Made by a program: the position numbers and the translations under genes
The notes under the pieces: generated by a model
What the model saw: the letters and a program-made list of their open reading frames with translations, nothing else
Databases searched by the model: none
Told to the model about the DNA's origin: nothing
Part shown: one piece after another, positions 2,331-52,838 of the stretch
Numbering within the stretch: position 1 is the stretch's first letter
Layout: each line of letters opens with the position of its first letter
Assembly (NCBI GenBank): GCA_030654225.1
Contig: JAURXY010000026.1
Span: 10,448 to 74,447 of the forward strand
From: a bacterium
Lineage (GTDB): Bacteria; Patescibacteriota; Minisyncoccia; Moranbacterales; UBA2206
Direction: 5' to 3'
DNA length: 64,000 nucleotides

Positions 2331-2492
2331 TGTTGTATGAATAATTTTTGTTCAGTAACTTGTTAAGTAACACTTTTCGAAGTAACAATTACATAATTAA
2401 TTACTTACATAAAAAATGAAAAGTAAAATAAAAACTAGTGCAGTCGTGGCGGCGGAATAAAAATTTCCCCAAACCTAAAACCGACATTGATT

Positions 2493-20580: not shown

Positions 20581-20664
20581 ATGGGAAAAAGTTATCCACA
20601 GCTCAAAAGTTGCCGGAAATATCACAGAGTGATATAATATCATCATAACAAACTAAATAAAGTT

Positions 20665-21663
20665 ATGAAAAACAAAAAAGAACAAAAAGAAATAATTATT
20701 TATCAGGCTAAGGATGGCGCCATCGAACTGCGTGGTGATTTTAAGCATGAAAATATTTGGGCTTCGCAAAAACAAATCGCTGATATCTTTGGAATTGATA
20801 GAACAGTAGTAACGAAGCACATTAAGAAAATTTTAACAGACAAAGAGCTTGATAAAAAAGTGGTATGTGCAAATTTTGCACAGACCACTAAGCACGGAGC
20901 AATCAAGGGTAAAACTCAAACAAAAGAAGTTGAATTTTATTCTCTCGATATGATTTTGTCTGTGGGGTATCGGACAAGTTCTTTCAAGGCTATTGAATTT
21001 AGAAAATGGGCGAATAAGATTTTGAAAGAGCATTTAATTCAAGGCTACACAATCAACAAAAAACAAATTGCCAAAAATTATGAGGCTTTTATGCAGACAG
21101 TATCTAGTATTCAAAATCTTTTGCCTGAGCATATCACGCTTGATCCAAAACTAGTTTTGGAACTAATCAAGGAATTTGCTAGCACATGGGTAGCGCTGGA
21201 TGCTTATGACAAAGAAACTCTTCGCGCAATTGGCACAACTAAAAAAGCAATCAAATTGTCAGGCAAAGAGCTAGTTGAAGCAATTATTGAGCTTCGAGGC
21301 GAACTTATGAAAAAAGGTGAGGCTTCTGATCTTTTTGCGCGAGAAAAAAGAGCTGGTAGTGTTGAGGGAATAGTGGGAAATGTAATGCAATCATTTGGTG
21401 GCAAAAATCTATATCCTACCGCTGAAGAAAAGGCGACCCATCTTTTGTATTTTATGGTGAAGAATCACCCATTCGACGACGGAAACAAACGCTCTGGTGC
21501 GTTTGCTTTTGTGTGGTTCTTGCGAAAAACAAAAATCCAAGGCGCTAAAAACATCAACCCAAGCGCGCTTACCGCCCTCACACTTTTGATTGCGGAAAGT
21601 AATCCAAAAAAGATGAATCAAATGACAGCGCTTGTCACGACACTTCTGTCAGTGAAAAAATAA
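20665..21663 (+). CDS. RhuM-family N-terminal domain fused to Fic/Doc domain (HPFDDGNKRSGA)
   Basis: RhuM-like N-terminal 120 aa; Doc-type motif HxFxDGNKR. Confidence 0.8.
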   Translation: MKNKKEQKEIIIYQAKDGAIELRGDFKHENIWASQKQIADIFGIDRTVVTKHIKKILTDKELDKKVVCANFAQTTKHGAIKGKTQTKEVEFYSLDMILSVGYRTSSFKAIEFRKWANKILKEHLIQGYTINKKQIAKNYEAFMQTVSSIQNLLPEHITLDPKLVLELIKEFASTWVALDAYDKETLRAIGTTKKAIKLSGKELVEAIIELRGELMKKGEASDLFAREKRAGSVEGIVGNVMQSFGGKNLYPTAEEKATHLLYFMVKNHPFDDGNKRSGAFAFVWFLRKTKIQGAKNINPSALTALTLLIAESNPKKMNQMTALVTTLLSVKK

Positions 21664-21777: not shown

Positions 21778-21960
21778 ATGTCTATGCGAAAAATTGAGGA
21801 AAAAAATGTGAGGAAGTTAACGAGGATGGGGAGAGAGGGAAGCAGTCTCGGGATGACCATCCCAAAGGAACTCATCGGCGAACTCGGCTGGCGCGAGCGT
21901 CAGAAAGTGGTGGTGAAAAAAGTTGGGAAAAATCTTGTAATTAGTGATTGGAAAAAATAA
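21778..21960 (+). CDS. AbrB/MazE/SpoVT-family small DNA-binding protein
   Basis: SSLGMTIPKELIGELGW ... KNLVI swapped-hairpin motif. Confidence 0.6.
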   Translation: MSMRKIEEKNVRKLTRMGREGSSLGMTIPKELIGELGWRERQKVVVKKVGKNLVISDWKK

Positions 21961-21971
21961 AAAATAATTTT

Positions 21972-22943
21972 ATGAAAAATAAATTAACTTTTATTGAAGA
22001 AGAAAATAAACTAATTCCGAATAGAATAATTGAAGAGCTAGGAATTAAGAATAATCAACAAATATATTTTGAAAAGGAATCAGAATCATTAAAAGTTTTT
22101 GAAATTGTTAATAAATTGCTCGGACCTCGTGGGTTTGAGGAATTTTCCGCCGGCCAGTTTAAAGCAATAGCGGGAGGATCATTAAACTGCTCAAATAAAA
22201 TTAAAAACTATGCAACTGGGAAAGGGGCTATCTCTAAGGGTTTTACTTATATCGCAGACATTATCAAATATTGCCAGATTTGTATTGATAATTCAGTCTT
22301 GATTCCTTTGGAAAGTATAATAGAAGAATTCGAGTGGGCGAAAAAAGCTATAAATGAGGGATATATTACATTACATTCGAATGGGAAGATGAGATATGAT
22401 ATTGAAGCAATTATGGATATAACAAAAGGTTTATTGGTGGAAGTTGCATTTAAAATTGATAGTGAGAGAAAAAATATAGAAATCGAATTGAATAGAGATT
22501 TTTTTACTGGGACAAGTAATACTGATGAGGGTCAAGATATCAAGCGGATAAAATTTACTGGTGATGTTTTTATATCTCCTCGGATAAAAGTACAAATTAA
22601 GGATACTCAATATTTTATACTTATTTCAGAAAATGAATTTAATGGGCCAAGAAAAGCAGAACTTTTTATTTCATATAAAGTACATTGGAAAAAAGCCAAT
22701 ACGGGGCAAAGATTTTTTAGAAGTCTTGGTGGAAGGGGCGAGCATATATTTTCCGATTTTCCAGTTCTTAAGGGAATACGAGCCGAAAGGAGAGGATGGG
22801 CGTTAAGAGAAGATTTTAAGGAATTAAAAAAGTTTAATAAATATAAAGGAAAATCTTTTAATAATGATAATATGTATGTTTATTGGGATGATTTGCGCGA
22901 TTTGAATGATCTTTTTTCAAAATTAAAAAATCTTATTGCTTAA
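21972..22943 (+). CDS. hypothetical protein; candidate restriction endonuclease/effector partner of the LexA-MTase
   Basis: no known motif; 3-prime end overlaps the convergent MTase gene by 11 nt. Confidence 0.45.
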   Translation: MKNKLTFIEEENKLIPNRIIEELGIKNNQQIYFEKESESLKVFEIVNKLLGPRGFEEFSAGQFKAIAGGSLNCSNKIKNYATGKGAISKGFTYIADIIKYCQICIDNSVLIPLESIIEEFEWAKKAINEGYITLHSNGKMRYDIEAIMDITKGLLVEVAFKIDSERKNIEIELNRDFFTGTSNTDEGQDIKRIKFTGDVFISPRIKVQIKDTQYFILISENEFNGPRKAELFISYKVHWKKANTGQRFFRSLGGRGEHIFSDFPVLKGIRAERRGWALREDFKELKKFNKYKGKSFNNDNMYVYWDDLRDLNDLFSKLKNLIA

Positions 22944-24507
22944 TCGCTTTCATAATTTGTTTTGCTACGGCCGTAACCACAGGGACACTCACAGAATTTC
23001 CAGCTTGCTTGTATAGTGAAGAGTCAGCCAAGTTTTTTGGCAGGATAAATGTTTTTGGAAATCCTTGTAGCCTAAAACATTCAAGAGGAGTCAGTTTTCT
23101 GATTCCTTTTTTGTCTTTTATAATTGGAACATTATGTCCACCCGTTCCCATATTAGCAGTGAGAGTTGGACACACGCCTTTTTTGTTTTCCCTCACATAT
23201 TGTCTTCTCCATTGATAAACTTTTCCTCCTTCATTTACAAAATCCTTAAGTTTTTCAAAGAGTGGTTTGTCGTTATAATAATATTTTTTGTCCACATTTT
23301 TTTCCAAAAGGTCAGTGACTCTTAGTTTCAATTCTTGTGGCTCTGGAAATTCAAATTTATCTGAATAATCTTTATTCTTAAATCCGACTATATAAATTCT
23401 TTCTCGGTTTTGTGGAACATTACCATACTCCATAGTGTTTAAAACTTTAGTTTTCACATGATAGCCCAAATCTTCTAGTGTCTGGATGATTATACTAAAA
23501 GTTTTCCCGTTGTCATGACCTTTGAGATTTTTTACATTTTCCAAAAGAAATCCTTCGGGCTTTCTAGCTTCCAAAATTCTTGCAACATCAAAAAACAAAT
23601 TTCCCCGATCTTTTTCATCATTAAATCCTTTGCGATATCCTGCGATTGAAAATGCTTGGCAAGGAAAACCGCCCAAGAGAAAATCAAATTTTGGTAAATC
23701 ATCAATTTCAATTTTTCTCATATCTTCCACGATAAGTTTTGATTTTTTGAAATTCAAATCATAAGTGTTCTTGCAATATTTATCAAAATCATTTGCAAAA
23801 ACTGTTTCAAATCCTGCATTTTCAAAACCTAATCTTATACCTCCAACTCCGGCAAATAAATCTAAGGTTCTAAATAATTTTTGTTTTGAGTCGCTAGGGG
23901 TATTCTCTAAATTTCTTTTTATCTCAATAACCACCCCTCTAATCTCAACTTCTTTCCTATATATCGGCAACATTGTTTGATTGGCTGGTTGAAGTCGGAA
24001 TCTATTTTTCTCTCGGTATATTTTTTTCAAAGTGGCTTCATTGTCATCAATTATCGCGACCACTGTCTGGCCATTTTCTGCCGAAGATTGTTTTTTTATA
24101 ACCACAATGTCACCATCGAAAATTCCTTCATCAATCATGCTCGTACCCCTAACTTCGAGAGCATAATATTGTTCATCTTTTTTTATATTACCCGAAGCAA
24201 TCATCACGCTTTCTCCTATTGTTTCTATGGCTTCGATTGGCTGACCGGCAACTATTACTCCAACTAATGGAATTTTTATAAGGCTATATGGATTTTTCTT
24301 TTTCAATTCGATCCCTCTAGCTGAACTTCCATTTCTTTCGATGAATTCTTTTTTCTCCAATGCTTCTAAGTGTTGGTGAATAGTTGAAGGAGCGGAGAGT
24401 TTGAAATGTTTTCTAATTTCTTCGATAGTAGGGGATAGCCTTTTTTTATTTATATAAGATTTGATAAAATCTAGTATTTGTTTTTGTTTTTTTGTGAGAG
24501 TGGACAT
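22933..24507 (-). CDS. fusion of full LexA-like repressor (wHTH + S24 peptidase) and DNA (cytosine-5)-methyltransferase
   Basis: N-term wHTH; VAG-Q cleavage site; S24 Ser (GTSM) and Lys (ATLKK) 38 aa apart; then MTase motifs I DLFAGVGG, IV GFPCQAFS, VI ENV, VIII QNRERIYIVG, X GNSVSVPV. Confidence 0.85.
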   Translation of the reverse strand: MSTLTKKQKQILDFIKSYINKKRLSPTIEEIRKHFKLSAPSTIHQHLEALEKKEFIERNGSSARGIELKKKNPYSLIKIPLVGVIVAGQPIEAIETIGESVMIASGNIKKDEQYYALEVRGTSMIDEGIFDGDIVVIKKQSSAENGQTVVAIIDDNEATLKKIYREKNRFRLQPANQTMLPIYRKEVEIRGVVIEIKRNLENTPSDSKQKLFRTLDLFAGVGGIRLGFENAGFETVFANDFDKYCKNTYDLNFKKSKLIVEDMRKIEIDDLPKFDFLLGGFPCQAFSIAGYRKGFNDEKDRGNLFFDVARILEARKPEGFLLENVKNLKGHDNGKTFSIIIQTLEDLGYHVKTKVLNTMEYGNVPQNRERIYIVGFKNKDYSDKFEFPEPQELKLRVTDLLEKNVDKKYYYNDKPLFEKLKDFVNEGGKVYQWRRQYVRENKKGVCPTLTANMGTGGHNVPIIKDKKGIRKLTPLECFRLQGFPKTFILPKNLADSSLYKQAGNSVSVPVVTAVAKQIMKAIKQ

Positions 24508-24810
24508 ATAATTGACGCAGGATATTATTTTGTTATAATTCTATTATACCGAAAAAAAACCGAACTAGCAAAAGCGAGTTATCCACAGCACGACCCTTTG
24601 AATATTTTAAGTAAAACTAATTTTTTGTTCAGCGACATGCTAAGTAACACTTTTTTTATTAGAACTGGTTCTTGGAAAGCTTGTCGGGAATAGGGTATAG
24701 AATAAGCAACAGCTATTGACATAATAAACTCAATCAATTAAGATTATTTTACTGGGTAATTTCGAAACCCTAGTCGTTTCGTTTTTTTAATTTAATGATT
24801 TTTATTTTAT

Positions 24811-25230
24811 ATGCCAACGATAAATCAACTCAAGAGAAAACCAAGAAAAACTACCGAGAATAAAAGCAAAACGCCAGCTTTTAAATATGTCTTTAACACT
24901 ATTCAAAACAGACCAACAGATACGGCTGGTCCATTTAAGCGGGGAGTGTGCATCAAGGTTTCCACTACTACTCCAAAAAAACCAAACTCAGCTCTGCGAA
25001 AAATTGCCCGAGTTCGTCTCACAAACGGAATGGAAGTAACGGCCTATATCCCTGGAATCGGACATAACTTGCAAGAGCATTCTATTGTGATGATTCGCGG
25101 AGGTCGCGTTAAGGATCTTCCAGGAGTGCGTTATCATATAGTGAGAGGTGTGCTGGACACTGCCGGAGCAGCTAACCGAAAACAAGGCCGATCAAAATAT
25201 GGAGCAAAAAGAGAAAAAGCTAAAGAATAA
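24811..25230 (+). CDS. rpsL: 30S ribosomal protein S12
   Basis: MPTINQL ... strong family match. Confidence 0.95.
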
Positions 25231-28133: not shown

Positions 28134-28364
28134 ATGATAAAGTTTCGTCAGGCATTATTTTGGGATACTAATCCAAAGAATATAGATACAGAGAAAAACG
28201 CTCAATATATCATTGAACGCGTTTTGGATTTTGGCAATGATAGAGAGGTAAAATGGCTTTATAATTTCTACGATAAATCGTTGTTAAAAAAAGTTGTCGC
28301 TAAGTCTCGTTCGCTAATGCCAGAAACAAAAAATTTATGGATAATGCTTCTAGAAAGCAAATAG
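28134..28364 (+). CDS. small protein upstream of AbiEii-family toxin (putative antitoxin partner)
   Basis: 76 aa; overlaps toxin start; recalled similarity to partners of DUF1814 toxins. Confidence 0.4.
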   Translation: MIKFRQALFWDTNPKNIDTEKNAQYIIERVLDFGNDREVKWLYNFYDKSLLKKVVAKSRSLMPETKNLWIMLLESK

Positions 28365-29014
28365 AATATAATTTTAGTATTATACCTGCAAAAACAAAAA
28401 AAGCGTTTGTTTTTTTGTCTGGACAAAATTGGCTTAGCGAAAGCGGATGGTATTTGGCTGGTGGAACTGCGCTGGCATTGCAAACAGGGAATCGCAAGTC
28501 AGTGGATTTGGATTTTTTTACCGTAGAAAAAGATTTTGATAAATCAGAATTGCTTGAAAATTTTTCAGAAAATAAAGAATGGAAAACTACCCTAAATAGA
28601 AAAAATACCGTTTATGGCGAACTGTCTAAGGCCAAAATAAGTTTTATCGCTTATCCTTTTTTTGTTCCTAAACAAGAATTTATCCAATATGGTTCGATTA
28701 AAATTTTGCAACCGCGCGATATTGCCGTAATGAAAATTATCGCCATTTCACAACGCGGACGCAAGCGTGATTTTTTTGATCTGTATTGGTGTGCAAAAAA
28801 TGTGGAATCATTAGAAGATTTGATAATAAGATTGAAAGTGCAATATCCTTTTGTGGCACACGATTATCATCATATTTTGAAAAGTTTAGTTTATTTTCAA
28901 GACGCAGAAAATGATCCACTGCCAGATATCACTTTTAAGGCGGATTGGAAAGAAATTAAGGATTATTTTAAAAAAGAAATTTTACGCATTACCAAAAAAA
29001 TAATCTTAAAATAG
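28337..29014 (+). CDS. nucleotidyltransferase AbiEii/AbiGii-family toxin (DUF1814)
   Basis: LAGGTALALQTGNRKSVDLDFF signature. Confidence 0.75.
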   Translation: MDNASRKQIEYNFSIIPAKTKKAFVFLSGQNWLSESGWYLAGGTALALQTGNRKSVDLDFFTVEKDFDKSELLENFSENKEWKTTLNRKNTVYGELSKAKISFIAYPFFVPKQEFIQYGSIKILQPRDIAVMKIIAISQRGRKRDFFDLYWCAKNVESLEDLIIRLKVQYPFVAHDYHHILKSLVYFQDAENDPLPDITFKADWKEIKDYFKKEILRITKKIILK

Positions 29015-29025
29015 AAAAAGCATTA

Positions 29026-29072
29026 AACAAATTTAAATTCCGTAGAGACGAGGCACTGCCTCGTCTTTTTTG
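29026..29072 (+). terminator. REP-like terminator hairpin (copy 2 of direct repeat)
   Basis: same hairpin and flanks as 28025-28070. Confidence 0.7.
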
Positions 29073-29171
29073 TGGCAAGGATTGCTTTTTTGATTGGGAT
29101 GTGCTTGTATGATGATAAGTTATTTTAACAAAAATTTTATCAACGCATAAAATATATATAAGGGGGAAATT

Positions 29172-29477
29172 ATGAAAAAATTCACGGTTAACATGATAAG
29201 AAAAACTCCCGACTTTTCGGAGGTTATAAATTGTTTTTCAAGCCAAGAGCGAAAATATTATTGTCATGAAATAGATAAATTAAGAGTGACATTTTTCGAC
29301 TATGGTTTGATTGAAGTCTTTATCATGAAAGTAAATCCAGCAGGGCCGGATGTAGCTAGAATAAGCTTGATTGGTTATGACGGATATGATGGGCTCCCAA
29401 TTTGGGATGTGAGAGGAGTGTTCAGAATGATTATGAAAGAGGTAATCGAAAAAATTTCGATGCCAAACTTACTATAA
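29172..29477 (+). CDS. hypothetical protein (strong SD)
   Basis: AAGGGGGAAATT-ATG. Confidence 0.4.
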   Translation: MKKFTVNMIRKTPDFSEVINCFSSQERKYYCHEIDKLRVTFFDYGLIEVFIMKVNPAGPDVARISLIGYDGYDGLPIWDVRGVFRMIMKEVIEKISMPNLL

Positions 29478-29493
29478 TTTTAAGGAGGTAGCC

Positions 29494-29691
29494 ATGAAAA
29501 AAAAGGGAATAAATCCAGAAATTGAAGCGGAAGAAAAAGTAACTACTGAAATTAAGCAGTTTCTTGAAGAAAAAGGAATTTTTGAGAAAATCAACCTGCG
29601 TGTAAAAAAACATATCGCACATCTCGGATTGACTGATTTTGAGGAAGACAATTTTATTCGCAAATGCTTCCACGAAGCATTGCATTATTAA
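29494..29691 (+). CDS. hypothetical small protein (strong SD)
   Basis: TAAGGAGGTAGCC-ATG. Confidence 0.4.
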   Translation: MKKKGINPEIEAEEKVTTEIKQFLEEKGIFEKINLRVKKHIAHLGLTDFEEDNFIRKCFHEALHY

Positions 29692-29805
29692 CTGTGTTAC
29701 CAGGCATTCCCCTTCTCTCATTTACGCATTGGCGTGATAGAGAGGCGGGGATTTTTTATTTGTCGCAAAAATTGTGGTAAAATATTTTATATAAAATTGT
29801 AGGCG

Positions 29806-29833
29806 GTAGAGACGCAAAATTTTGCGTCTCTAC
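29806..29833. repeat. 28-bp perfect palindrome GTAGAGACGCAAAATTTTGCGTCTCTAC (REP-like), copy 1, 25 bp upstream of RAYT gene
   Basis: exact copies at 30147-30174 and 54579-54606. Confidence 0.9.
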
Positions 29834-29858
29834 GATGTGATATAATACAAAAATAAAA

Positions 29859-30416
29859 ATGTCAGAATTATTCAAAAACAAATACACAATTAAATCATCC
29901 AGATTATCAAATTATGATTATTCTCAAAATGGAATGTACTTCGTTACGATTTGCACGAAAGACAAGGAATATTTTTTTGGGGAGGTGAAAAATGGGGGAA
30001 TGGTGTTGAATGATGTGGGGAAAATGGCAGATAAATATTGGCGCGAAATTCCAGCGCATTTTCCATTTGTAAGATTAGATGAATTTGTTGTAATGCCCAA
30101 TCATGTGCATGGGATTGTGGAAATTGCAAAAAACATTGATGCTAGCGTAGAGACGCAAAATTTTGCGTCTCTACAGGGCGAAAGGGGAAATAAATTTGGT
30201 CCACAATCAAAAAATTTAGCCTCTATAATTCGTGGTTTTAAGGTGGGGGTAAAAAAATATACAACAAAAAATGAAATTTATTTCCAATGGCAACCCCGTT
30301 ATTACGACCAAATAATTCGAAACGAAATTTCCCTAAACAAAATTCGTGAATATATCCAAATTAATCCGCAGATGTGGGAAAGAGATAAAAACAGTTTAGA
30401 AAATATATTTATGTAA
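29859..30416 (+). CDS. REP-associated tyrosine transposase (RAYT) / IS200-like HuH transposase
   Basis: HuH motif MPNHVHGIV; C-terminal EYIQINP and RYYDQ Tyr region; contains in-frame REP copy 2. Confidence 0.7.
   Translation: MSELFKNKYTIKSSRLSNYDYSQNGMYFVTICTKDKEYFFGEVKNGGMVLNDVGKMADKYWREIPAHFPFVRLDEFVVMPNHVHGIVEIAKNIDASVETQNFASLQGERGNKFGPQSKNLASIIRGFKVGVKKYTTKNEIYFQWQPRYYDQIIRNEISLNKIREYIQINPQMWERDKNSLENIFM
30147..30174. repeat. REP-like 28-bp palindrome copy 2, in-frame inside RAYT ORF (encodes SVETQNFASLQ)
   Basis: exact palindrome. Confidence 0.9.
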
Positions 30417-30478
30417 TTTTCCATTGACATCCAATTTTAAATAAGTTAGCATTAATTTATCAAGTTAAAATAAAATTT

Positions 30479-30757
30479 ATGTTAGACAAAAAACTCAAAG
30501 AAGCGCTTGATCTCTTGGGAGGAAAAGCGGTGATAAAAGACCAAGAACAATATTATGTGATTCTCAGCCTTTTGGAATTTAAGAAAATAAAGAAAGAAGG
30601 CATAGAAGGCTTGACAAAACAAGAATTGGTTGATAAAATCAATAATGATATAGCAAGCTGGAAAGTGATCCAAGAAGAGGAAAAAATTGAAGATATGGAT
30701 CTTAGCGAAATGAGTGAAGCGAAAAGTGAGGAAATACGCTATGAAAAGACGCAGTAG
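30479..30757 (+). CDS. hypothetical protein
   Basis: 92 aa ORF; acidic C-terminus. Confidence 0.35.
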   Translation: MLDKKLKEALDLLGGKAVIKDQEQYYVILSLLEFKKIKKEGIEGLTKQELVDKINNDIASWKVIQEEEKIEDMDLSEMSEAKSEEIRYEKTQ

Positions 30758-30931
30758 GTCTTATCCACAGCAATAAATATACGGGGGACTTGCCAAAATA
30801 ATAAAAGTGTATTAAACTAAATTTTGTAATATATAACTTAATAAAAAATCGCGACTAATTGCGAATCCGGTATTTATTCCGGAATTTTCCGCTCTGGCGG
30901 GGAATGCAAAAATCGCGCCAAAATTAAAACT

Positions 30932-50419: not shown

Positions 50420-51643
50420 GTGAAGGATATAAAAATTATAACTGAATACTGGGGCAAAATAAATCCTTTGAAAATAGAGGACTATATTAATGTTGGAGGA
50501 TACACGGCCTTGGAAAAATTTGTTTCGAAAATGAATCCAGAAAAGGCAATTGAGGAGATTCAAAAGTCTGGTCTTTGTGGGCGCGGTGGTGCGGGTTTTC
50601 CAATGGGAGATAAATTGGGAATGGTAGCAAAACAAACTGGAGAGAAATATTTCATCTGCAACCTTGAAGAATCAGAACCGGGGACATATAAGGATAGATT
50701 GGTTGTGGATAATAATCCGCATTTGCTTTTGGAAGGAATTATAATTTCTGCACTTTCGATTGGTGCTCAAAAAGCCTATATCTACATCAATGGGAATTAT
50801 GAAAAGCAAAAAGAAATTTTGGAGATTGTAATTTTGCAAGCGAAAGAAAAAAAATATTGGGGAGAAAATATTTTGGGTTCGAAATTTAGTTTAGAAATAG
50901 AAATTTTTTCTGGCGCCGGTGCATATATTTGTGGAGAAGAAACGGCGCTCATAAATTCTATTGAGGGTAATCGCGGAGAGCCAAAAATTCGTCCACCATT
51001 TCCAACTTCGGCTGGACTTTTCGGTTGTCCAACCGCCGTGAGTAATGCAGAAACAATTTCTAATATTCCCTGGATAATTTCTAATGGTGGGAAGAAGTAT
51101 TCAATTATTGGCTCAAAAAATTCCCCTGGGACAAAGCTTTTTCTTTTGAATGGTGCTGTAGCAAAGCCAGGGTGCTATGAAGCACCAACCGGAATAACAG
51201 TTAAAAAATTAATTGACGATTACGCTGGCGGAATAAAAAGAGGTAAAGAATTTTGGTTTGCGCAAATTGGTGGCGCTTGTGGAAAATTACTTTTAGAAAA
51301 AGAACTAAAAGCTAAAATGGAATTTGGCAAAGAATGTGAATGTTCGCTAGGCTCCGGATCAATTTTAGTGGTGGATAAAAGTGTCAATATTCATGACCTC
51401 CTTATTTCTTGGACAGATTTTTTTCGTCGAGAATCTTGTGGAAAATGTGTACCTTGTCGAGAAGGAACTTTTCGGCTGTGGGAAATAGCTAAAAGATTTC
51501 GTGACGGTGAAATTTCCGATCGCGACAAAGAAGCGATTCAAGATATTTTATGGACACTGGACAATACGACTTTTTGCCCATTGGGAAAATTCGCCGGAAC
51601 CGCGTTTCGGGATGCAGTGGGAAAAGGTATAGTGAAATTTTAA
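50420..51643 (+). CDS. NuoF/HoxF-like NAD(H)/FMN-binding subunit
   Basis: GRGGAGFPMG; 4Fe-4S ESCGKCVPCREG. Confidence 0.85.
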   Translation: MKDIKIITEYWGKINPLKIEDYINVGGYTALEKFVSKMNPEKAIEEIQKSGLCGRGGAGFPMGDKLGMVAKQTGEKYFICNLEESEPGTYKDRLVVDNNPHLLLEGIIISALSIGAQKAYIYINGNYEKQKEILEIVILQAKEKKYWGENILGSKFSLEIEIFSGAGAYICGEETALINSIEGNRGEPKIRPPFPTSAGLFGCPTAVSNAETISNIPWIISNGGKKYSIIGSKNSPGTKLFLLNGAVAKPGCYEAPTGITVKKLIDDYAGGIKRGKEFWFAQIGGACGKLLLEKELKAKMEFGKECECSLGSGSILVVDKSVNIHDLLISWTDFFRRESCGKCVPCREGTFRLWEIAKRFRDGEISDRDKEAIQDILWTLDNTTFCPLGKFAGTAFRDAVGKGIVKF

Positions 51644-51803: not shown

Positions 51804-52838
51804 ATGAATATAAAAATAAACGGAAAAATTTACGAGGCAAAAGCAGGTGAAGCAATATTTGCGGTTTGCAAAAAAAATGGGATAAAAGTTCCGACTTTGT
51901 GTTCGACGAAAAAATTTCAAGAAGGGGTATGTCGAATTTGTGTGGTTGAGATAGGCGGAAGATTGGTGACTTCTTGCAATACAAAAGTTTGCGAAGGGAT
52001 GGAAATTGTAACTGAAAGTGAAAAGATTGAAAAAGCACGGCGGATTAATCTGGAACTTTTGTGGGCGGATCACGCTGGGAAATGCGCGACTTGCAAAAAA
52101 AATCAAATGTGCGAATTGCAAAATTTAGCCTTGGAATATAAGATTGAAAATTTTCATTTCATTCCGAGAAAGGGTGAAATAACAGGCGCGGAAGAATTGG
52201 ATTTGATCAAAGATAATTGGTCTCGCGTGGTGGTAGAAAATGAAAATCCCTGCATATCCAGAAATAGCGAGCTTTGTATTGAATGTCGCAGATGTATCAA
52301 TATTTGCCCAGAGAAAAAATTTGGCTTTAACTATCGTGGTAATTCTGTGGTGGTGGGAACTCCTTATGAAAAAGTTTTGGATTGCAGTTTTTGTGGAAAA
52401 TGTGTAGAGGCGTGTCCTACGGGAGCGCTCACGGATCAAAATAATTATTTGAAAATCGTGGAAGATCTGGATAATCTTGAAAAATTTTCAGTGGCTGTTT
52501 TAGATCTCGGAATAGAAGAAAAAATATTAAAGGCGATGGGAAAAATAAGCCCAGAGAAGGATTTGAATAAATTGCTAATCAATTTAGGTTTTGAGAAGAT
52601 TGTAAAATTAGGAAAAGAAAATTTGAAAATTGAATTTGTGAAAAATATTAAAGATGAATATTCCAGAACCAAAAAAATAAATCAGCAAGATATTGTGGTA
52701 TTTTTCATTTCTTCAAGGATTTATGAGAAAGCTAAGCGAGATAAAAATTTGGATTATATTCTAAGTGAAAGGGAAGTGGCGAGATTGGTTAGAGATAAGG
52801 AGAAAATAAAGATAGGAAAAATTCACCCTATTAAATAA
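51804..52838 (+). CDS. NuoG-N-terminal/HoxU-like [2Fe-2S]+[4Fe-4S] subunit with about 110-aa Cys-free C-terminal extension
   Basis: 2Fe-2S Cys; CIECRRC, CSFCGKC clusters; SD GGAG. Confidence 0.75.
   Translation: MNIKINGKIYEAKAGEAIFAVCKKNGIKVPTLCSTKKFQEGVCRICVVEIGGRLVTSCNTKVCEGMEIVTESEKIEKARRINLELLWADHAGKCATCKKNQMCELQNLALEYKIENFHFIPRKGEITGAEELDLIKDNWSRVVVENENPCISRNSELCIECRRCINICPEKKFGFNYRGNSVVVGTPYEKVLDCSFCGKCVEACPTGALTDQNNYLKIVEDLDNLEKFSVAVLDLGIEEKILKAMGKISPEKDLNKLLINLGFEKIVKLGKENLKIEFVKNIKDEYSRTKKINQQDIVVFFISSRIYEKAKRDKNLDYILSEREVARLVRDKEKIKIGKIHPIK

Follow-up and report, generated by a model that had tools for sequence, protein, structure and literature searches.

Introduction

Genes for LexA are classically autoregulated, and in Bacillus subtilis and other Gram-positive bacteria the LexA site is the Cheo box, GAAC-N4-GTTC. 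DnaA also serves as a transcription factor at single promoter-proximal boxes, as in the dnaA and nrdAB promoters of E. coli, and the DnaA regulon of B. subtilis responds to replication stress. Control of a gene by its own product is also found in C5 methyltransferases of the M.SsoII / M.Ecl18kI type, in which an N-terminal DNA-binding domain represses the enzyme's own promoter. The SOS network of the Patescibacteria, the same superphylum and the same regulator as in the fusion protein described below, was the subject of a study in 2017 by Sanchez-Osuna, Barbe and Erill (PMID 28618189, cited in PMC8565304), and the LexA-binding motif analysed below has very likely been in print since that year. 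The direct-repeat LexA box GTTC-N7-GTTC is an established class in the Alphaproteobacteria (PMC8565304).

In the Patescibacteria, conserved regulatory sites are especially informative because these bacteria are uncultured and have very small genomes with few regulators. Here we analyse a 303-bp spacer (24508-24810) that separates a minus-strand lexA-methyltransferase gene from plus-strand rpsL in a 64,000-nucleotide stretch of DNA with a G+C content of 36% (the window; all positions refer to it). In its candidate LexA operator, TTCGGT-N5-TTCGGT, the locus resembles the alphaproteobacterial box: two tandem half-sites lie 11 bp apart in a lexA promoter, implying autoregulation, and many Patescibacteria lexA promoters read GTTC-GGTTTTT-GTTC, an exact match to GTTC-N7-GTTC. 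It differs from that box in that the Patescibacteria half-site is longer (TTCGGT) and the candidate site is always placed in the spacer between -35 and -10; moreover, the window copy, taken with its preceding G, is GTTC-N7-TTTC and the window LexA is fused to a methyltransferase. The fusion brings the locus close to M.SsoII / M.Ecl18kI, where a DNA-binding domain is likewise joined to a C5 methyltransferase with a candidate site in its own promoter. Unlike in those enzymes, however, the N-terminal part amounts to a whole LexA (winged helix-turn-helix and S24) that is apparently cleavable, and the candidate operator is that of stand-alone LexA genes in related lineages. As in the DnaA-regulated promoters of E. 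coli and B. subtilis, a consensus 9-mer stands by the -35 at a constrained distance, and it would tie the status of replication to the response to DNA damage, but here the target is the lexA promoter, the arrangement spans several candidate phyla, and the box is found in either orientation.

Systems in which lexA is autoregulated through a direct-repeat SOS box in its promoter are of a known kind. What looks new against the accessible literature is the tight and widespread pairing of a consensus DnaA box with lexA promoters, and the fact that a LexA-C5-methyltransferase fusion uses this module. Searches of that literature found no relevant paper on LexA-methyltransferase fusions, nor on DnaA boxes in Patescibacteria or at lexA promoters.

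Results and discussion

The spacer divides into a lexA module, a junction and an rpsL block

The closest relatives of the window are metagenome-assembled Moranbacteria and other Patescibacteria; all sequences compared were metagenome-assembled and none came from a cultured organism. Promoter-like sites are enriched in and around the spacer (8 in 24200-25100 versus 2.6 expected, consensus scan). Judged by conservation, the spacer is made up of three parts: the lexA module (24508-24587), a junction (24588-24711) and the rpsL promoter and leader (24712-24810). The first is a regulatory module that accompanies the lexA-methyltransferase gene among relatives with different upstream neighbours. In the closest relatives (L091, L092 and L011-L013), the fusion proteins are 92-96% identical to that of the window and the upstream neighbours differ. 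Their alignment with the window (A1) is conserved from the ATG through the DnaA box, and becomes unalignable farther out. The junction with rpsL is absent from these relatives and 24588-24711 is unconserved, a pattern that marks this segment as genome-specific junction DNA. Rfam returned no RNA family in the spacer when the whole window was searched at gathering thresholds, and at permissive E-values the region 24400-24900 gave weak matches only (E 0.9-8, far under the gathering score).

A base-by-base check confirmed the presence of every element listed in the original prediction, with both TATAAT/TTGACG hexamer coordinates off by one. The minus-strand -10 does exist, at 24548..24543 and not at 24544-24549, and pairs with a -35, TTGCTA, across 17 nt; the plus-strand TTGACG-16-TATAAT is likewise present, at 24512-24539 and not at 24513-24540. 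The positions of all features are collected in Table 1.

Table 1. Features of the lexA-methyltransferase/rpsL spacer and its flanking genes, in window coordinates.
Feature	Position	Strand	Description
lexA-methyltransferase gene	22933..24507	-	524 aa; LexA_DNA_bind, Peptidase_S24 and C5 DNA_methylase (Pfam)
lexA-methyltransferase 5' leader	24508..24542	-	conserved; nearly invariant in the six closest sequences
Candidate outward-facing promoter TTGACG-16-TATAAT	24512..24539	+	11/12 consensus positions; TG before the -10
lexA-methyltransferase promoter	24543..24571	-	-35 TTGCTA 24571..24566, 17-nt spacer, -10 TATAAT 24548..24543
Candidate LexA operator	24548..24564	-	TTCGGT-TTTTT-TTCGGT; direct repeat, period 11
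Consensus DnaA box TTATCCACA	24579..24587	+	exact match
Imperfect inverted repeat AGAAC-TG-GTTCT, AGAACTGGTTCT	24661..24672	.	judged a chance feature
rpsL (str operon) promoter TTGACA-17-TAAGAT	24716..24744	+	consensus scan; conserved
rpsL leader	24745..24810	+	conserved; terminator-like hairpin 24763-24781, then seven T 24782-24788 (pattern scan)
rpsL gene	from 24811	+	Pfam

The junction holds one copy of a T-flanked element of about 34 nt, TTGTTCAG[C/T][G/A]AC[A/T]TG[C/T]TAAGTAACAC, which occurs in three intergenic copies (window 24621-24659, window 2345-2377 and L011:2038-2071 on the minus strand), two of them directly after a stop codon. Folding of this element gave no stable RNA structure, and the other loci held no copies. 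Two of the copies take the form of a direct repeat, TTCAGTAAC-N3-TTAAGTAAC.

The fusion protein carries an intact LexA module

Pfam bore out the gene identities that had been assigned at the outset: the minus-strand gene combines LexA_DNA_bind, Peptidase_S24 and C5 DNA_methylase, and the plus-strand gene is rpsL. The N-terminal part of the fusion consists of a LexA winged-helix domain and an S24 self-cleaving domain, and residues 1-199 align over their full length with the T. maritima and E. coli LexA structures. The cleavage site (A87-G88) and the Ser/Lys dyad (S123, K161) are both present, and by these features the LexA part is complete and apparently cleavable. The methylase domain matches M.HhaI end to end, and its catalytic motifs (FAGVGG, GFPCQ, ENV and QAGNS) are intact. 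The fusion is not a one-off: the same three domains are found in the best 120 database matches, all of them at least 70% identical. The exact protein has no record in the contig collection. The source names of the 120 best matches are Moranbacteria, Paceibacterota, Parcubacteria and similar groups, and their annotation is often plain 'LexA'.

The 3' end of the methylase gene is overlapped, by 11 bp, by a convergent gene. In the window this is a 331-aa ORF with no Pfam match (21948-22943, plus strand), preceded by a MazE-like ORF (21778-21960, plus strand); at the same position, close relatives encode a 148-aa PD-(D/E)XK (PDDEXK_5) protein (L091:1740-2186 and L092:1901-2347). The convergent gene may supply the methylase with a variable endonuclease partner.

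A direct repeat in the promoter spacer is the candidate LexA operator

The consensus scan identified a sigma-70-type promoter for the fusion gene (Table 1), from which transcription would start near 24536. Both its hexamers are kept in L011-L021, L091 and L092. The leader downstream carries ATTATAAC, which together with the -10 makes an inverted repeat, TATAAT-N3-ATTATA, and GTCAATTAT immediately ahead of the ATG; a TATAAT-N3/4-ATATA pattern is also seen in more distant lexA promoters. The minus-strand promoter with an adjoining DnaA box, as proposed in the original prediction, held up well, being conserved both at orthologous fusion genes and at stand-alone lexA genes of other Patescibacteria lineages.

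The spacer of this promoter reads GTTCGGTTTTTTTTCGGT, that is TTCGGT-N5-TTCGGT with an 11-bp period. This repeat fills the 17-nt spacer, lying one base from the -35 and sharing one base with the -10 (its last T is the first base of TATAAT), and so overlaps the elements used by RNA polymerase at the lexA promoter. Two half-sites with an 11-bp period have the spacing expected for binding by a dimer, as in the GTTC-N7-GTTC box. The exact repeat is present once in the window and in 29 of 90 loci (a set that includes 10 rpsL loci without lexA), invariably as a single copy that lies 40-160 nt upstream of lexA and on its strand; elsewhere in the DNA of those 90 loci there was none. When up to three mismatches were allowed, the operator was found in 58/69 lexA loci from WWE3, Komeilibacteria, Magasanikbacteria, Moranbacteria and further groups, every copy between the -35 and the -10. 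The repeat occupies that place at fusion and stand-alone lexA genes alike, in lineages that also take in Jacksonbacteria, Portnoybacteria and Kerfeldbacteria, among others. We assembled a weight matrix from 40 distinct sites, with the window site left out; it gave the window site 27.9 bits and the next best site in the window 15.5. The repeat was absent from other promoters, among them those of rpsL and of a Fic-domain gene (20665-21663). It is thus both conserved at orthologous lexA genes and specific for them, and on this evidence the fused LexA-methyltransferase appears to share its operator with the ordinary LexA genes of related lineages.

Altogether, these results support LexA autoregulation, with a site that belongs to a known kind. 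The LexA-type control originally proposed for the fusion gene remains the best reading; the operator named for it, AGAAC-TG-GTTCT, was wrong and gives way to the direct repeat at 24548-24564, which the original prediction had not listed, a well-supported candidate site that can be tested. Most likely, the LexA domain of the fusion would bind TTCGGT-N5-TTCGGT and shut out RNA polymerase, a negative autoregulation. DNA damage would then lead to self-cleavage at A87-G88, which would take away the DNA-binding domain and so free the promoter.

In the WWE3-type lexA promoters (L044-L062, L075, L080, L085 and L087), the sequence directly after the -10 forms a second conserved block, ACGAAGAAAATNCGTAA, that resembles an additional operator copy in inverted orientation.

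A DnaA box is paired with lexA promoters at a constrained distance

The perfect DnaA box that had been noticed beside the minus-strand -35 was confirmed as an exact match at its reported position. It lies 7 nt upstream of the -35, inverted relative to the promoter and centred near -47. Perfect copies of TTATCCACA are abundant in the window (5 versus 0.57 expected; all 100 shuffles gave fewer than 5). In 418 kb of lexA loci, 28 of the 45 perfect boxes fall within 200 nt upstream of lexA; these zones make up 3% of the locus DNA, an enrichment of about 20-fold. An unbiased count of 9-mers upstream of 67 Patescibacteria lexA genes ranked TTATCCACA as the commonest (27/67 loci), ahead of the operator words. 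The position of the box relative to the promoter is conserved as well: in 25/26 promoters the gap between box and operator is 12-17 nt (15 nt in 11/13 promoters whose box is forward, 14 nt in the clade of the window, which has an inverted box), and apart from the -35 the DNA between box and operator is variable. A conserved DnaA box adjoins lexA promoters in several candidate phyla, and a DnaA box, 12-17 nt including the -35, and TTCGGT-N5-TTCGGT running into the -10 together provide a marker for Patescibacteria lexA promoters.

Bound 7 nt upstream of the -35, DnaA would most likely modulate the same promoter as LexA, and this input would link lexA-methylase expression to the status of replication. 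A functional box would bring replication control together with the DNA-damage response at one promoter. Taken together, we consider it probable that the three-part division of the spacer, LexA autoregulation through the direct repeat and modulation of the same promoter by DnaA jointly explain the locus. The role of the box may be non-uniform, since its orientation is opposite in different lineages and the WWE3-type lexA promoters have no DnaA box.

TTATCCACA is also found upstream of unrelated promoters and is hence not lexA-specific. An arrangement of box, 9 nt and -35-like hexamer occurs at non-lexA promoters in the window (20592) and at L002:32, L011:2001 and L013:6570. The window example, TTATCCACAGC at 20592-20600, stands 9 nt before TTGCCG-17-TATAAT, ahead of a gene with Virulence_RhuM and Fic domains (20665-21663), and is conserved in L013. 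Another box, TTATCCACAGC at 30761-30769, lies 20 nt before a -35-like TTGCCA upstream of tuf, one helical turn farther from the -35 than in the 9-nt arrangement. The boxes at 20592 and 30761 suggest a small DnaA regulon, and DnaA probably acts at these box-bearing promoters. We tentatively propose, as an idea with rather less than an even chance of being correct, that in much of the Patescibacteria the lexA promoter is a dual-input switch, made of a DnaA box at a fixed distance from the -35 and a LexA operator in the spacer, with DnaA acting as a general transcription factor in these very small genomes. Such a switch would connect the state of replication with the response to damage; in Moranbacteria-type lineages it would also connect these with the production of a LexA-tethered cytosine methyltransferase.

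Alternative readings of the spacer elements

The original prediction had placed the LexA operator in a perfect 12-bp palindrome at 24661-24672. AGAACTGGTTCT is indeed found there, but its reverse complement is AGAACCAGTTCT, so that it is an inverted repeat with 5-bp arms around a non-palindromic TG. That this repeat is a Cheo-box-like operator controlling the fusion gene is suggested by its GAAC/GTTC half-sites, which it has in common with the Cheo box, and by the exact 10-base GAAC-N2-GTTC-type pattern being unique in the window (0.07 expected). Yet its arms are spaced by N2 rather than N4, the Cheo box itself (GAAC-N4-GTTC) being found nowhere in the window, and inverted repeats of such size are at chance frequency in this region (5-bp arms with a spacer of at most 8 nt: 6 in the 303 bp versus 6.9 expected from shuffles; arms with at least two G/C: 2 versus 0.9, a count reached by 24% of shuffles). 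The repeat also lies about 90 nt upstream of the lexA-methyltransferase -35, outside any promoter and within the unconserved 24588-24711; it is missing upstream of the most similar fusion genes, where conservation ends at the DnaA box, and from the conserved rpsL block. With a far better candidate operator within the promoter itself, this assignment is extremely improbable and we reject it: as judged from these comparisons, the repeat is an unconserved chance feature. The direct repeat can be questioned in its turn, as the site of some other regulator or as a lineage-specific feature of the promoter spacer that happens to persist at lexA. No LexA regulon could be demonstrated, so that some other factor with a specificity for lexA promoters could be what binds the repeat: Pfam annotation of 20 window genes found no recA, uvr or other SOS gene, and scanning about 620 kb of loci with the matrix gave one convincing extra site (L055:614, before an 83-aa ORF). 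A metagenome scan for GTTCGGT-N4-GTTCGGT afforded no view of a regulon because lexA promoters accounted for 2/80 loci, nearly all the rest being unrelated G+C-rich or repetitive DNA. Against a different regulator stand the restriction of the repeat to lexA promoters across very divergent lineages, the classical autoregulation of lexA genes and half-sites set one helical turn apart as in the known LexA box, and we regard it as unlikely.

For the DnaA box, a single 9-mer in an AT-rich genome might have arisen by chance or be left over from an origin of replication, and in either case play no part at the promoter. The enrichment upstream of lexA and the constrained distance to the operator, kept in several lineages with variable flanks, argue against this, as do the lack of a box cluster and of a dnaA or dnaN gene nearby, and we consider it highly unlikely. 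The plus-strand TTGACG-16-TATAAT is harder to judge. It could work outward under LexA control and provide damage-inducible transcription toward the gene upstream of lexA, here rpsL, and the candidate operator would span roughly +2 to +18 of the resulting transcript; if this promoter is real, LexA would thus block it too. It agrees with the consensus at 11 of 12 positions and carries a TG before the -10. Its hexamers are conserved among the six closest sequences around a variable spacer (as TTGACT-16-TATAAT in L011-13 and L091-92), it is the sole promoter-like site for the divergent gene in L012, and the upstream neighbour is transcribed away from lexA in 12/12 relatives (L011-L021, L037) and in the window. 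On the other side, it was undetected in the more distant fusion loci L017, L021 and L037, which restricts its conservation to the closest clade, and the conserved bases, which overlap the lexA leader, could instead serve that leader and the start of translation. The neighbours it would drive are unrelated to one another and to DNA repair (PIN, lipase, HerA-like, glycosyltransferase and LD-carboxypeptidase genes), rpsL has a conserved promoter of its own, and the two promoters would collide head-on: they face each other with -10 hexamers 3 bp apart, and their inferred starts cross. We hold an outward promoter to be a real possibility that falls somewhat short of an even chance.

A replication origin at 24579-24587 was considered separately and rejected. 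The box stands by itself, with no other match of at most one mismatch within 1 kb outside coding sequence, and a lone box of this sort speaks against an origin; the window genes examined also included neither dnaA nor dnaN. A run of near-consensus DnaA boxes does occur on the minus strand at 50704-51445 and 52392-52474, inside genes for NuoF-like and NuoG-like iron-sulfur proteins. Read on the opposite strand, TTTTCCACA becomes TGTGGAAAA, which in the right frame would specify Cys-Gly-Lys, and this cluster may therefore reflect cysteine-rich coding sequence and not an origin.

rpsL has its own promoter and leader

The block at about 24712-24810 is 89-92% identical in nine relatives with an identical S12 protein. 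The genes upstream of rpsL in these identical-S12 contigs are unrelated (a lipase-like protein, an antitoxin and a helicase), and since the rpsL-proximal block is kept in spite of this, rpsL has its own promoter. Read-through control toward the str operon, as had been envisaged, is consequently not needed. The hairpin in the rpsL leader has 6 pairs, including 3 G-C pairs. Its stem does not appear in the minimum-energy fold, the leader is not unusually stable (z -0.43), and among relatives the 5' arm is variable, with pairs lost and no clear compensation. A terminator or attenuator at 24763-24788 is doubtful because the stem is unused in that fold and its 5' arm varies uncompensated.

Further along the str region, fusA and tuf lie about 3 kb apart in the window, and the interval (28134-30757) holds an AbiEii-type toxin gene, small ORFs and the remnant of an IS200-like Y1 transposase. 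In several relatives, an ORF of 277-293 aa separates rpsG from fusA. In this lineage, the region of the str operon is apparently an insertion hotspot.
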